Part shown: positions 4,658-7,890 of the stretch, piece after piece
Position numbering within the stretch: the first letter of the stretch is position 1
Layout of the letters: each line of letters starts with the position of its first letter
IMG/VR virus record: IMGVR_UViG_3300042922_000836
Location: 1 to 64,000 of that record
Length of the DNA: 64,000 nt
Origin: a virus
Strand: one strand, 5' to 3'
Notes under the pieces: model-generated
Told to the model about the DNA's origin: nothing
Database searches by the model: none
Seen by the model: the letters and a program-made list of their open reading frames with translations, nothing else
Position numbers and translations under genes: made by a program

Positions 4658-4864
4658 TTGATTAGCAATGACATGTGTATGAAATGCACAAAAGAGCCTG
4701 TATGTAAAAATAGAGATATTCTTTTAAAATTCAGTGATAATGCAAAGAAACCTCTTGGTGTTAATATATCATTAAATTCTTGTTCTTATTTTGATCCTGA
4801 GCCTGATATTGATGATAACGATGACGATTCTGATGATAATTCAGATGATGGAAAGGATGAATAA
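4658..4864 (+). CDS. small Cys-rich protein with acidic tail
   Basis: CxxC-x4-C...C and Asp-rich C-terminus; SD AAAGGAG. Confidence 0.6.
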   Translation: MISNDMCMKCTKEPVCKNRDILLKFSDNAKKPLGVNISLNSCSYFDPEPDIDDNDDDSDDNSDDGKDE

Positions 4865-5831
4865 TATTTCCCAATATGAAGAAATAAAAAGAATTGTAAA
4901 AGGTAAATTAGTTGATAAAACTATTAAAGATGATTTTGAAAGTTTAAGTGAACCTCTTTTTGGCGAGGGAAATTGTTTTAGTTCTGATGAAGTTCGTAAA
5001 CGTATGTATGGTATGAAATATTTAATTGATGTACTTGAAATTGAACGTTATTTTGAAAAATTGTATAAAAAGATATTATCGATTTCAGATTTACATACTC
5101 CCTTTCAACTCCCTATTGAAACATTTAAAGATTATAAAGAAAAGGTAGACATTTTAGTATTAAACGGTGATTTACAAGATGCACAGTCTGTAAGTAAATT
5201 CCCTAAAAAGTATAGGATTCCGTTTGATGAAGAAATGATTGAAACAAGACAATACATAATTGATTTAATAAATTATATTAAGCCAAAAAAAGTTTATATA
5301 AATAAAGGTAATCATGAAGATAGATTATTAAAATTATTATCTGATAAACTTAATGACGATTTATTAAGAATATTGCCTGATTCTCCCCTTGATTTAATTA
5401 TAAATGATGGGTTTAAAATTACAAATAGAAGAAATAAAACAGAAACATGGTATTCACCTGTTAAAGAAATATTTAATGATATTGAGATTATTTATACAAG
5501 AGATTGGAAGTGTAAAATCGGTAAAACAATTTTTGCACATCCCCTTGCTTATTCGTCTGGTATGTTAAAGACAACTGAAAAAGCTGTTAATTATTTCTTG
5601 CGTGAAGATAGAGATTTCGATACTATTGTTTTAGCACATACTCATAAATTGGGTAGTTTCTTGCAAGGTAATATTTATTTATATGAGCAAGGATGTAGCT
5701 GTAAAACAGAGGAATTAAGCTATACAGATGGTTATCTCACTTTACCAGCACAAAAAGGATTTATATTTGTATGTCAAGATAAAGATGGTAATCTTATTCA
5801 TGATAAAACAAAATTAATCGAAATTAAATAA
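4857..5831 (+). CDS. calcineurin-like metallophosphoesterase
   Basis: Motifs SDLH, NGD, GNHE, HP, AHTH; start chosen at ATG 4857. Confidence 0.85.
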   Translation: MNNISQYEEIKRIVKGKLVDKTIKDDFESLSEPLFGEGNCFSSDEVRKRMYGMKYLIDVLEIERYFEKLYKKILSISDLHTPFQLPIETFKDYKEKVDILVLNGDLQDAQSVSKFPKKYRIPFDEEMIETRQYIIDLINYIKPKKVYINKGNHEDRLLKLLSDKLNDDLLRILPDSPLDLIINDGFKITNRRNKTETWYSPVKEIFNDIEIIYTRDWKCKIGKTIFAHPLAYSSGMLKTTEKAVNYFLREDRDFDTIVLAHTHKLGSFLQGNIYLYEQGCSCKTEELSYTDGYLTLPAQKGFIFVCQDKDGNLIHDKTKLIEIK

Positions 5832-5839
5832 AATTCAAG

Positions 5840-6350
5840 TTCGTACTGTGATGTTCTTCGGACTCATGGTCTTATAATTTGCGATCTTGCTACTGATCTC
5901 TACGGAACAGTAGTTAAAGTGTGACTGACACTGTAAAAATCTGAAACTGATTTTCTGAGTATAAAAGCCAGAAAATTGCTTGTAGAACGTATGTGTCTAC
6001 TGTTGGTTTGACAACGATAAAAACAAACATGTTTATCGGACTTCGTGAGTCGATGGTTGGCAGACAACATAAAAATCAGTCAAATCTCAAAGATGGGGTT
6101 TACTACTGCGGTAGTTCTCCCTACTTTGTAGAATGGGTATGAAACCCCAACAAAGAAGATTAACTAATATAGTGTGATGGTTTTTCGACTATCCAAATTA
6201 AAAAAGGGTTACCTTTTTGAATGAGAGTGATAGAAATATTGCTTTCTATTTTTACAAAGTAGAAAGTAGTCGGTACACTACTTTTTATACGGAATTGCGG
6301 TGAGTCATCTGCGGATGCCATCTTAGAATAGTGGTTACGACTGCTATTCT
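5840..6350 (+). ncRNA. large ornate structured ncRNA candidate (ROOL/GOLLD-like context)
   Basis: ~510-nt region with no credible ORF, GC-richer than its flanks, with more than 10 nested stems, long-range pairings and a C(UUCG)G loop; lies directly 5' of the tRNAs. Confidence 0.65.
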
Positions 6351-6357
6351 TATATAT

Positions 6358-6433
6358 TGCGGAATGTAAGCAGTGGTAGCTGGTTAGGCTCATAACCTAA
6401 AGGTCGAGAGTTCGAATCTCTCTTCCGCATCCA
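6358..6433 (+). tRNA. tRNA-CAT (Met, initiator-like body; Ile2 not excluded)
   Basis: Acceptor TGCGGAA/TTCCGCA, anticodon arm TTAGG-CTCATAA-CCTAA, T loop TTCGAAT, encoded CCA. Confidence 0.92.
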
Positions 6434-6436
6434 ATT

Positions 6437-6500
6437 GATTATGTAACAGACGAATAGGACAACTTAATTATTGCTATTTTCAGTCTGCATTTACATAATC
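6437..6500 (+). ncRNA. long interrupted hairpin between tRNAs
   Basis: Nested stems GATTATGTAA/TTACATAATC (10 bp), CAGAC/GTCTG and GAATAG/CTATTT. Confidence 0.45.
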
Positions 6501-6506
6501 TTATAT

Positions 6507-6580
6507 CGAAGAATAGTGTAATGGTAACACAACGGACTTTGACTCCGTTATTCTAAGTTCGAATCTTAGTTCTTCAACCA
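6507..6580 (+). tRNA. tRNA-Gln(TTG)
   Basis: Anticodon arm ACGGA-CTTTGAC-TCCGT, T loop TTCGAAT, encoded CCA, C1:A72 mismatch. Confidence 0.92.
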
Positions 6581-6585
6581 AATAT

Positions 6586-6659
6586 CGAGAAATAGTGTAA
6601 TGATAGCACAGTAGATTTGGGATCTACCAGTTTGGGTTTAATTCCTGATTTTTCGACCA
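6586..6659 (+). tRNA. tRNA-Pro(TGG), atypical D and T loops
   Basis: Acceptor CGAGAAA/TTTTTCG, anticodon arm GTAGA-TTTGGGA-TCTAC, CCA; T loop reads TTTAATT and the D loop lacks GG. Confidence 0.75.
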
Positions 6660-6684
6660 AGGAAACCCCTTGCCTTAGTAGGGA
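6659..6684 (+). ncRNA. ToxI-like H-type pseudoknot (unit A)
   Basis: S1 AAGG/CCTT, S2 CCCT/AGGG; resembles the recalled B. thuringiensis ToxI core. Confidence 0.45.
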
Positions 6685-6686
6685 TA

Positions 6687-6787
6687 TATACAGTGGTGGA
6701 ATAGGTAAACACACAAATACGGTTGATAGGCAACGGAGTTTTGGAAAGGTCTATTATATAAGGTGCAAATCCTTATCTGTATATCAA
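6687..6787 (+). ncRNA. tRNA-like RNA without a canonical anticodon arm
   Basis: Acceptor TATACAG/CTGTATA, Leu-type D arm GTGGAATAGGTAAACAC, T arm ATAAGG-TGCAAAT-CCTTAT; central ~45 nt are non-canonical. Confidence 0.55.
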
Positions 6788-6860
6788 AGAGGTTGTTGAT
6801 ACCTTTAAATCAAGCTTTATATTCAAGGTGTTTCGCTACCTAAAATGCGAAGTTTATATG
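6788..6860 (+). ncRNA. tandem ToxI-like pseudoknots (units B, C; 36-nt period)
   Basis: B: AGAGGT/ACCTTT plus TTGAT/ATCAA. C: AGGTG/TACCT plus TTTCGC/GCGAAG. Both end in AAG(C)TTTATAT. Confidence 0.65.
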
Positions 6861-6868
6861 CATGTGAG

Positions 6869-6933
6869 TGACTACTTTAGTGTCAAATTTAAAACGAGTG
6901 TTCCCTACTTTAATGGGAAATATTTTTTAAGTG
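6869..6933 (+). ncRNA. tandem H-type pseudoknots (units D, E; 33-nt period)
   Basis: TGAC-TACTTTAGT-GTCA-N10-GAGTG and TCCC-TACTTTAAT-GGGA-N10-AAGTG: same geometry, compensatory stem 1. Confidence 0.6.
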
Positions 6934-6960
6934 CTTCGCTATAAGCAACTTATAACAGAA

Positions 6961-6996
6961 CCTCTCGCACCTCTTAATAATGTGTACCAGTAGAGG
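6961..6996 (+). ncRNA. abiF-motif-like structured RNA
   Basis: Outer stem CCTCT/AGAGG and inner stem GCAC/GTGT; the reverse complement CTGGTACACATTATTAAGAGGTGCG resembles the element recalled beside Abi_2/AbiF genes. Confidence 0.45.
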
Positions 6997-7032
6997 GCAT
7001 TATGGTTTACGGTTTTCCTTAAACCGTTCTAT

Positions 7033-7108
7033 GTGGGTGTAGCTTAGTTGGTAGAGCAAGGAGCTTTTAACTCCGAGGTCAGAGGTTCGATTCCTTTCAC
7101 CCGCACCA
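7033..7108 (+). tRNA. tRNA-Lys(TTT)
   Basis: Acceptor GTGGGTG/CACCCGC, anticodon loop CTTTTAA, T loop TTCGATT, encoded CCA. Confidence 0.93.
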
Positions 7109-7173
7109 TTTATTTCTCAATAATTCTTATTTTCGTTCATATTTTATATCTCTCATTTGGGATTATTACTTTG

Positions 7174-7261
7174 ATTGTTGCCTATCGTCTGGCAACTAAA
7201 ACATTGACGATTTGCTTTCAATTGTCACCTACCGTCTGGTGACTGATAAATTGACGGTTTG
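7174..7261 (+). ncRNA. tandem H-type pseudoknots (units F, G; 47-nt period; CptI-like size)
   Basis: F: GTTGCC/GGCAAC plus ATCGTC/GACGAT. G: GTCACC/GGTGAC plus ACCGTC/GACGGT. Both stems covary. Confidence 0.72.
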
Positions 7262-7268
7262 ATAGAAA

Positions 7269-7300
7269 TACCCGCCCTTTATTGGGTGGGTAAAATTTTT
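7269..7300 (+). terminator. GC-rich hairpin closing the RNA island
   Basis: TACCCGCCC-TTTATT-GGGTGGGTA followed by AAATTTTTT. Confidence 0.55.
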
Positions 7301-7302
7301 TA

Positions 7303-7851
7303 ATGAAAGAAGTGCTGAAAATTTTATATACATTAAACCTTGTAACATATATACTTAAAAATAAAGATGGTCATTATATATCATTACCATTACCAAAATA
7401 TATTCAAGTAGGAAAAGAATATTATGATGAAAATGAAATTAAACAAGATCAAATAATTGATATGTATGTTAAAGATTATGCCAAAAAGAATAATTGTGAA
7501 ATAATAACATCAACCGAGAGTTCGTTTAACATTCCTAAAATGTTTAGTTATCAAGTTAATTATAAAGATTTATATAGTTATCATTTTAGAGATTATAGAT
7601 GTTCAAAATGGCATGTTGTAGAATATTTAAAATATAAAAAATGTTTAAAAAAACATAAAGAAGATTTGATTTATACACAAGAGAATTTTCAATTTGTAAC
7701 AAGCTGTAGTGGTGAATATACAATATCTAATACTATATATGATGCTGTTATATGTAATCATTGTAATATAACTTTTTGTTTAACAGATATAAACAAAGGT
7801 TTCCTTTATGCTGTAAAAACAGATATTGGTAGATTATTGGGAAAATACTGA
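7303..7851 (+). CDS. hypothetical protein
   Basis: 182-aa ORF with CxxC near the C-terminus; start uncertain. Confidence 0.6.
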   Translation: MKEVLKILYTLNLVTYILKNKDGHYISLPLPKYIQVGKEYYDENEIKQDQIIDMYVKDYAKKNNCEIITSTESSFNIPKMFSYQVNYKDLYSYHFRDYRCSKWHVVEYLKYKKCLKKHKEDLIYTQENFQFVTSCSGEYTISNTIYDAVICNHCNITFCLTDINKGFLYAVKTDIGRLLGKY

Positions 7852-7854
7852 TTT

Positions 7855-7890
7855 AAACACTTTCAATTAAATTGAGAGTGTTTTATTTTA
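7855..7890 (+). terminator. intrinsic terminator
   Basis: AAACACTTTCAAT...ATTGAGAGTGTTT plus T-rich tail. Confidence 0.6.

Follow-up and report, generated by a model that had tools for sequence, protein, structure and literature searches.

In this study, we analysed a stretch of 64,000 nucleotides (nt) of viral DNA (hereafter, the window), which corresponds to positions 1–64,000 of the 137-kb IMG/VR virus record IMGVR_UViG_3300042922_000836. The record is the genome of a large soil phage. AbiF, one of the AbiF/Abi_2 HEPN ribonucleases (RNases), is a widespread abortive-infection nuclease and has been proposed to be the ancestor of Cas13. Its antitoxin is a small RNA, the abiF RNA (Rfam RF03085; also named AbiFr or RCd22). 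Within the tRNA operon of the window, a 42-nt hairpin at positions 6958–6999 on the + strand resembles this RNA. We propose that the hairpin is a copy of this antitoxin RNA that has diverged and lacks a toxin gene; the phage may make it as a decoy against AbiF. This is the best supported of the readings considered here, but it is tentative, and we put its probability at roughly 0.45.

The window hairpin shares with the abiF RNA a length of about 37–42 nt, an outer stem, an inner stem of 3 base pairs (bp), the loop CCUCUyAAyrAUG and a bulge on the 3′ side. Its outer stem is CCUCU/AGAGG, its inner stem is CAC/GUG, its 11-nt loop is CUCUUAAUAAU, which fits CCUCU.AA..AUG, and its 3′ bulge is ACCAGU. 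Thus, the consensus fold of the family is present. The Rfam abiF model matched positions 6961–6997 with 25.9 bits and an E value of 1.3e-3 (calculated for one family and one genome), and this was the only abiF match that the 137-kb genome gave at E values up to 10. With the same limit, no match to the toxin family Abi_2 (PF07751) was found in the genome. An abiF-like hairpin had already been noticed in a preliminary description of the window, and the covariance-model search bears out this part of it.

Two models built from phage hairpins were used to place the window hairpin relative to its look-alikes. Model R1 was seeded with 74 phage hairpins, and the window hairpin was excluded from the seeds. 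With R1, the window hairpin gave 35.0 bits and was the only match in the 64 kb, although this score is partly circular. Model R2 was restricted to the 65 rows in which the canonical 14-mer is exact, and the invariance of its loop makes it too narrow. R2 joins the sub-family with 'ACCAGU' to the canonical hairpins: the scores of loci L081, L095, L086, L082 and L077 were 36.5, 29.7, 26.2, 23.5 and 21.8 bits, respectively. Intermediates link the window hairpin to the family, the loop changing at one or two positions at a time and the inner stem shifting compensatorily from CGC/GCG to CAC/GUG. Because of the sub-threshold Rfam match and this chain of intermediates, the window hairpin is, as judged from its sequence, probably a member of the phage abiF hairpin family. 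We are less sure of this membership than of the reality of the family.

The family itself is widespread in viral contigs, since pattern scans of IMG/VR gave 20 and 117 loci. Around the canonical loop 14-mer, an outer stem of at least 5 bp was present in 98 of 116 instances, and the stems were not part of the search pattern. In the alignment of 101 hairpins to the model, 90.2% of the cells were paired, as compared with 29–47% when the partners were slid. Double changes were found at nine of the ten pairs, and none of 500 shuffles reached the observed values. It should be mentioned that these figures lean towards pairing because the seeds were stem-filtered and the alignment was fitted to the model. 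Before the models were built, hairpins with an outer stem of less than 5 bp were dropped, together with nine rows that were judged to be chance matches (L079, L088, L090, L167, L176, L179, L190, L198 and L208). The Rfam abiF cut-off was passed in 15 of 19 sampled loci.

Cultured phages also possess the hairpin, among them three Synechococcus phages and 36 Mycobacterium phage records. In the record of Synechococcus phage S-CREM1, the hairpin is annotated as a non-coding RNA 'abiF' and is located between tRNA-Asn and tRNA-Gly, beside the RNAs manA and wcaG. Neither S-CREM1 nor Mycobacterium phage Optimus, which are complete cultured phages with the hairpin, has an Abi_2 gene. Closer to the window phage, we collected 27 related IMG/VR records via the phosphoesterase encoded upstream of the tRNAs (44–62% protein identity). 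In two of these, which belong to one lineage, an abiF hairpin with 42.4 bits, above the cut-off, is located directly 3′ of tRNA-Thr, the last tRNA of the cluster. Both records are without an Abi_2 gene.

The association with tRNAs is not confined to the window. In total, 18 of 87 hairpins were located within 60 nt of a tRNA on the same strand, whereas random placement gave 1.5 ± 1.1 and at most 6 in 2,000 trials. The tRNA neighbours of the family hairpins are tRNA-Arg, Thr, Met, Asn, Asp, Gln, Tyr and Gly. Because these neighbours differ, several lineages are involved. In 14 of the 18 cases, the tRNA starts 2–7 nt after the hairpin. This distance from the tRNA ends suggests that the hairpin may be released by tRNA processing.

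Toxin genes are rare in the records that carry the hairpin. Abi_2 (PF07751) was found in none of 13 and in 2 of 50 further hairpin-bearing virus records; within the set of 50, the value was 2 of the 15 records that were at least 90% complete. In both positive records, the toxin gene follows the hairpin on the same strand after about 120 nt. Thus, the search detects the canonical arrangement when it is present, and the family is the partner RNA of AbiF. The open reading frames (ORFs) downstream of the hairpins are heterogeneous, 77 ORFs falling into 60 clusters, and ten of them, tested against Pfam, had no Abi or HEPN domain.

[quoted passage not shown] Mutations that break the stems of RCd22 abolish the neutralisation, and RCd22 also reduces the expression of abiF in cis (PMC12373285). 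Because RCd22 neutralises in trans and the phage copy is toxin-less and accompanied by tRNAs, it is plausible that the window hairpin is an antitoxin mimic. In the scheme that we have in mind, the block would be the distal part of a phage tRNA/small-RNA operon on the + strand, and the hairpin at 6958–6999 would be transcribed with the tRNAs and then freed by the processing of tRNA ends. The freed hairpin may bind HEPN RNases of the AbiD/F family that are encoded by the presumed Bacillota host or by resident prophages. It would thereby keep these RNases inhibited as the host antitoxin RNA runs out during infection, as in the case of the pseudo-ToxI RNA of phage phiTE. The analysis shows the folds, the link to the family, the lack of a toxin gene and the association with tRNAs, whereas the expression, processing, binding and any anti-defence effect of the hairpin are inferred.

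Several points weigh against the decoy reading. The Rfam score of the window hairpin is under the gathering score of 37. As for model R1, nine of the 74 seed rows had been obtained with a pattern that was itself based on the window hairpin and that of L006, and the seeds were pre-filtered for stems. The over-narrow R2 gave no match in the window with default filters at E values up to 10, and with the filters off it scored the window hairpin at 10.9 bits in a wrong register. R2 also misses the closest look-alike of the window hairpin, L092, whose hairpin is located 11 nt after tRNA-Asn. Only a single copy of the motif is present in this phage, although neutralisation required both motifs of RCd22 in the experiments reported (PMC12373285). 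Many of the virus records are fragments, so that the absence of Abi_2 from them is weak evidence. Finally, T runs follow many of the family hairpins, and a role as a terminator or in RNA stability is therefore possible.

In a different explanation, the block has no anti-defence role and its structures are processing signals, nuclease barriers, terminators or decayed tRNA remnants in the spacers of a tRNA operon. Phage tRNA arrays do hold other structured RNAs, such as manA and wcaG beside abiF in S-CREM1, and tRNAs are frequent neighbours of GOLLD and ROOL (PMC5737381). As in the window, these are folded RNAs other than tRNAs that are placed among phage tRNA genes of the same strand. The region 6660–7032 has no excess of nested stability over shuffled sequences (z −0.62), T runs are found after many family hairpins and a T-arm-like hairpin is located in 6717–6783. 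This explanation, however, leaves the 11-nt loop unaccounted for: the loop is conserved in cyanophages, mycobacteriophages and Bacillota phages, whereas the stems are free to vary. Nor does it account for the two phages in which an Abi_2 gene has the same hairpin as its cis partner, and the compensatory changes in the interleaved stems of a 47-nt repeat pair of the block (described below) point to selection for a specific tertiary fold. We consider this explanation rather unlikely.

The decoy reading of the hairpin can be compared with known RNAs. Unlike the canonical abiF RNA, the window hairpin has a score below the cut-off, occurs as one copy instead of two, is not upstream of an Abi_2 gene, belongs to a genome without Abi_2 and is placed inside a tRNA operon. 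The pseudo-ToxI of Pectobacterium phage phiTE is likewise a toxin-less phage RNA that resembles a host antitoxin, and it has been proposed to be a suppressor of abortive infection (PMC3475682). The window hairpin resembles another antitoxin family and has no similarity to ToxI. Furthermore, the effect in phiTE was shown with escape mutants (PMC3475682), whereas the window hairpin is known from its sequence alone.

If the decoy reading holds in cyanophages, mycobacteriophages and this presumed Bacillota phage, antitoxin RNA mimicry would be a common natural counter-defence and not a curiosity of one phage. The idea would be directly testable in the cultured phages that bear the hairpin. In the literature that we searched, a counter-defence by toxin-less abiF RNAs of phage tRNA arrays is not described, although it may have been mentioned before.

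Other features were observed around members of the family. In L107 (11932–12017), and also in L108, L115, L117, L122, L151 and L160, two abiF-type hairpins are arranged in tandem. The upstream copy is the more divergent one (about 27 bits), and the arrangement resembles the two-motif RNA RCd22. In three unrelated phages, a gene of a calcineurin-like metallophosphoesterase is located within 1–3 kb of the hairpin/tRNA region: in the window (4791–5831), in L006 (4001–4945) and in L292, which is Mycobacterium phage Optimus (gp174). In L006, the second ORF after the hairpin encodes a beta-CASP/metallo-beta-lactamase RNase-like protein. On the basis of three cases, the combination of phosphoesterase with hairpin and tRNAs may be a neighbourhood of RNA repair or processing. 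In several proviruses and phages (L089, 2902–2943; L091, 9690–9731; L094, 11684–11725; L093, 5357–5398), the hairpin has flanks resembling a tRNA T-arm and acceptor stem, which are not called by ARAGORN. These flanks may be tRNA-like elements or remnants of attachment sites. In L152 (3630–3727), L207 (12209–12305) and L134 (1829–1877), the hairpin precedes tRNA-Arg and is accompanied by wcaG RNA and a glutamine riboswitch. These contigs have arrays of up to 30 tRNAs, and all these features are typical of cyanophage-like genomes.

Besides the hairpin, the block contains tandem pseudoknots. The preliminary description had counted at least seven small H-type pseudoknots between and after the tRNAs, namely a single one and three tandem pairs with periods of 36, 33 and 47 nt. 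Four of these, in the 47-nt and 36-nt pairs, are solid, the two of the 33-nt pair are plausible and the single one is weak. We scanned for compact H-type pseudoknots with Watson-Crick pairs only, requiring two stems of at least 4 bp, a total of at least 9 bp and short loops. The scanner found 5 pseudoknots in 643 nt, as compared with 0.90 in dinucleotide shuffles, and 3 of 300 shuffles reached 5. Against the natural background of the window (3.25 pseudoknots per kb), however, the block is enriched only about 2.4-fold. It is the arrangement in tandem that is unusual. When both strands of the whole genome were searched for adjacent pseudoknots of similar geometry with an identity of at least 50%, two pairs were the only ones not rich in AT, and both are in the block.

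The stronger pair is located at 7174–7267 (+ strand). It consists of two 47-nt units, which contain H-type pseudoknots at 7177–7211 and 7224–7258, each with 6 + 6 bp and an A-rich third loop. The pair was also reported by a repeat finder (repeat D1), while Tandem Repeats Finder did not detect the 47-nt repeats. Between the two copies, 13 of 47 positions are different. Six of the 13 fall within stems, where they make up three compensatory double changes, and all 12 base pairs are thereby kept in both copies. Random substitutions reproduced this conservation in 17 of 200,000 trials; this simulation was used instead of a two-sequence shuffle control (55/500), which is uninformative. The two copies themselves thus give good support for selection of a fold with two interleaved stems, as in an RNA pseudoknot.

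In the second pair, with a period of 36 nt (6790–6813 and 6826–6851, + strand; 4 + 5 bp), stem 1 is AGGT/ACCT and is identical in both copies. Stem 2 changes from TTGAT/ATCAA to TTCGC/GCGAA, which corresponds to three compensatory pairs. This pair is thermodynamically weak (nested-fold z −0.63 and −0.16), and on the minus strand there is also an alternative pairing for its second stem. Thus, both tandem pairs proposed in the preliminary description at these periods are present, and we conclude that the 47-nt and 36-nt pairs are real, lineage-specific folded RNAs.

The evidence for the remaining units is less uniform. The candidate pair with a 33-nt period (6866–6933, + strand) is a real repeat (D10), and its stems were read by eye. 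Its hairpins at 6869–6885 (TGAC/GTCA) and 6901–6919 (TTCCC/GGGAA) have the common loop TACTTTART, and the stems covary by eye. A possible second stem is formed by TACTT with RAGTG 9–10 nt downstream, including G-U pairs. The Watson-Crick-only scanner missed this pair, and its nested-fold z values were +0.49 and −1.56. That the units are pseudoknots is plausible, with G-U pairs being required. The single unit at 6659–6684 has only 4 + 3 bp, and the minimum-energy fold favours another hairpin (z −0.39). This unit is at chance level, and the claim of a single pseudoknot in the preliminary description is not supported.

Downstream of the 47-nt pair, the order of elements is the one seen in a toxin-antitoxin (TA) locus of type III. 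The repeats end at 7267 and are followed by a terminator-like hairpin at 7269–7292 with 9 pairs (6 G-C) and a T run (7269–7302, + strand), which is the GC hairpin noted earlier at the end of the block. Directly after the T run, an orphan ORF of 182 amino acids (aa), P0001, starts (7303–7851, + strand), and a second terminator-like hairpin (7855–7883, + strand) closes the ORF unit. Because P0001 starts directly after the T run, there is no room for a promoter of its own. The G+C content of P0001 is 21–23%, as compared with 28.9% for the genome. In the preliminary description, no toxin was recognised in the window. The genome has no match to ToxN (PF13958) at E values up to 10, nor to PF07751; however, P0001, which occupies the position of a type III toxin, had been overlooked.

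Therefore, the 47-nt pair could be part of an ordinary cis module, and it may serve the adjacent P0001 instead of acting as a decoy. According to this explanation, the pair, the terminator and P0001 form a self-contained type III-like TA or abortive-infection module of a temperate phage, in which P0001 would be a new toxin family restrained by two pseudoknot RNAs and read-through of the terminator would set the ratio of RNA to toxin. For the 47-nt pair alone it is a rival of the decoy idea, and it does not conflict with the abiF reading of the hairpin. The layout agrees with the published description of type III loci: pseudoknot-capable tandem repeats, a terminator and a toxin gene with gaps in the range of about 1–50 bp (PMC3401426). 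In that description, cptIN loci have repeats of 40–48 nt in 1.9–3.4 copies with toxins of 45–213 aa, and tenpIN loci have repeats of 39–57 nt in 1.9–3.0 copies (PMC3401426). The 47-nt pair and P0001 are of sizes within these ranges. The repeats of tenpI have been reported to be non-identical, to differ by up to 35% and to escape Tandem Repeats Finder (PMC12283969), and the 47-nt copies behave likewise. In addition, both 47-nt stems covary, the third loop is A-rich and P0001 is closed by its own terminator and differs from the genome in G+C content. Two tandem pseudoknot units of about 47 nt with, only a few bases away, a terminator and then an ORF of roughly 180 aa are thus the features common to this locus and to cptIN and tenpIN loci.

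In contrast, P0001 has no detectable similarity to ToxN and could be placed in no family or fold, and the repeats have no relatives in the collections searched. P0001 had no match in Pfam, PADLOC, NCBIfam, PHROGs or the sequences of the PDB, libraries that were not confirmed to hold CptN or TenpN models. A full HMMER search of 1.84 billion representatives gave two relatives, P0002 and P0004 (46% and 35% identity), on short contigs; a third match was rejected as a low-complexity false match. A word-based search found only P0001 itself, and no loci encoding P0001-like proteins were found in the viral, genome or metagenome collections. The structure models of P0001 are poor, with confidence values (pLDDT) of 39 and 51. 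With these low-confidence models, the scores in the protein atlas (at most 0.80, with TM scores below 0.4) are noise, Foldseek gave no match at an E value of 0.001 or better and the best Z value in VIA-align was 5.5. A likeness of residues 11–73 to the T4 antitoxin Dmd (Z 4.7) was rejected because it was not above unrelated rows. A HEPN reading of P0001 was also rejected: the R-x4-H string is not conserved in the relatives. Moreover, such a layout arises trivially wherever the terminator of a tRNA operon precedes the next gene. We therefore regard the module as possible but doubtful. If it were true, P0001 with the 47-nt pair could be the founding case of a new family of type III-like toxins.

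The same arrangement allows a further explanation. The 47-nt pair would be a cis-acting leader, either riboswitch-like or an attenuator bound by a protein, and would determine how often transcription passes the terminator into P0001. Two pseudoknots of aptamer size directly upstream of a terminator and an ORF would suit such a leader, and RCd22 is a case of an RNA that lowers abiF expression in cis (PMC12373285). However, no alternative pairing of the pseudoknots with the 5′ arm of the terminator was seen by eye, and no Rfam riboswitch family matched at E values up to 10; preQ1 and other riboswitch readings were rejected for this reason. There are also no relatives of the pair that show conservation. 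Taken together, a leader function is highly improbable.

The central claim of the preliminary description was that the phage co-transcribes a library of orphan antitoxin mimics drawn from several type III families (ToxI, CptI, TenpI and abiF) and thereby gains a broad anti-defence. One antitoxin-like unit, the toxin-less abiF-type hairpin, is supported. Three further pairs have the size, the tandem arrangement and the H-type topology of type III antitoxins. The units are probably co-transcribed with the tRNAs, which are themselves known tools of counter-defence (PMC13728456). In contrast, the pseudoknot pairs show no similarity to ToxI or to any other Rfam family. The best score of the ToxI model (Rfam RF02519) was 13.1 bits at 6663–6689 (gathering score 50), with nothing at the 36-nt units, and the Rfam scan at E values up to 10 gave no antitoxin family besides abiF. 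The pairs also match none of the families manA, wcaG, GOLLD and ROOL that are known from phage tRNA arrays. The likeness to ToxI, CptI and TenpI that was seen is one of size and topology only, the comparison with CptI and TenpI being confined to these two features and to the Rfam scan, in which neither family came up.

Relatives of the pairs were sought in several collections. In a blastn search of the spacer DNA against 50,697 phage records, the tRNAs alone gave matches. In the 27 related IMG/VR loci, the tRNAs alone align to the stretch, and no convincing tandem pseudoknot pair was found, apart from four AT-rich chance pairs. Pattern scans with the 47-nt unit gave no viral matches, and among 21 genome and 16 metagenome matches none had both stems. 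With the patterns of the 36-nt and 33-nt units, 35 and 42 matches were obtained, of which 4 and 1, respectively, passed the stem test outside open frames, and none of these was alike. Because the pairs have no relatives in the collections searched, no conservation supports a function of them. Furthermore, one of the units does not exceed chance, and one of the pairs lies next to a candidate partner in cis. Thus, a library of mimics from several families is improbable.

A related and equally improbable extension regards the tRNA operon in its entirety as an RNA cassette for counter-defence with several targets, in which the AbiF mimic is combined with the three pseudoknot pairs. In such a cassette, the pairs would be decoys for further, undescribed host defence nucleases that use RNA antitoxins (type III-like). 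All units would be released by tRNA processing beside tRNAs that replace cleaved host tRNAs.

The setting of these elements is as follows. The 137-kb genome has direct terminal repeats and a G+C content of 28.9%. The region 5832–7302 (1.47 kb) is without a long ORF and lies between the gene of a calcineurin-like phosphoesterase (4791–5831; Pfam Metallophos) and the orphan ORF P0001. Its G+C content is 31–43%, as compared with 20–31% in the flanking genes. It carries tRNA-Met (CAT; 6358–6433; 55.9 bits with the Rfam tRNA model), tRNA-Gln (TTG; 6507–6580), tRNA-Pro (TGG; 6586–6659) and tRNA-Lys (TTT; 7033–7108), all on the + strand and all detected by both ARAGORN and Rfam. These four are all the tRNAs of the 137-kb genome. 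The block analysed here extends from the end of tRNA-Pro to the terminator-like hairpin at 7269–7292. Between the abiF-type hairpin and tRNA-Lys, a stable hairpin is located at 7002–7027 (+ strand; fold of 6996–7032, z −2.46). The nested fold of 7109–7302 is far more stable than shuffles (z −5.18). Promoter-like sites numbered 28, as compared with 29.4 expected from shuffles, and we therefore claim no promoter. Among the sequencing runs listed for the sequence, none was of RNA, the only one being a DNA run that is probably its source.

To judge the spacer units as tRNAs or pseudo-tRNAs, ARAGORN was also run with lower thresholds. At 80–85%, no call was added on the + strand. At 70%, the sole new + strand call was 6717–6783, with a nonsense anticodon. 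This element contains the T-arm-like hairpin (TAAGG-TGCAAAT-CCTTA) closed by a 7-bp stem and may be a decayed tRNA.

Upstream of tRNA-Met, the 526 nt without an ORF at 5832–6357 form a row of hairpins (z −4.81; none of 100 shuffles was equal) and match no Rfam family at E values up to 10. The spacer between tRNA-Met and tRNA-Gln (6434–6506) forms a single long hairpin (−17.8 kcal/mol, z −4.5). Further upstream, an 842-aa ORF at 1502–4030 matches Pfam RdRP (PF05183, E 2.6e-15), and we take it to be an RNA polymerase of the single-subunit kind represented by YonO of Bacillus phage SPbeta.

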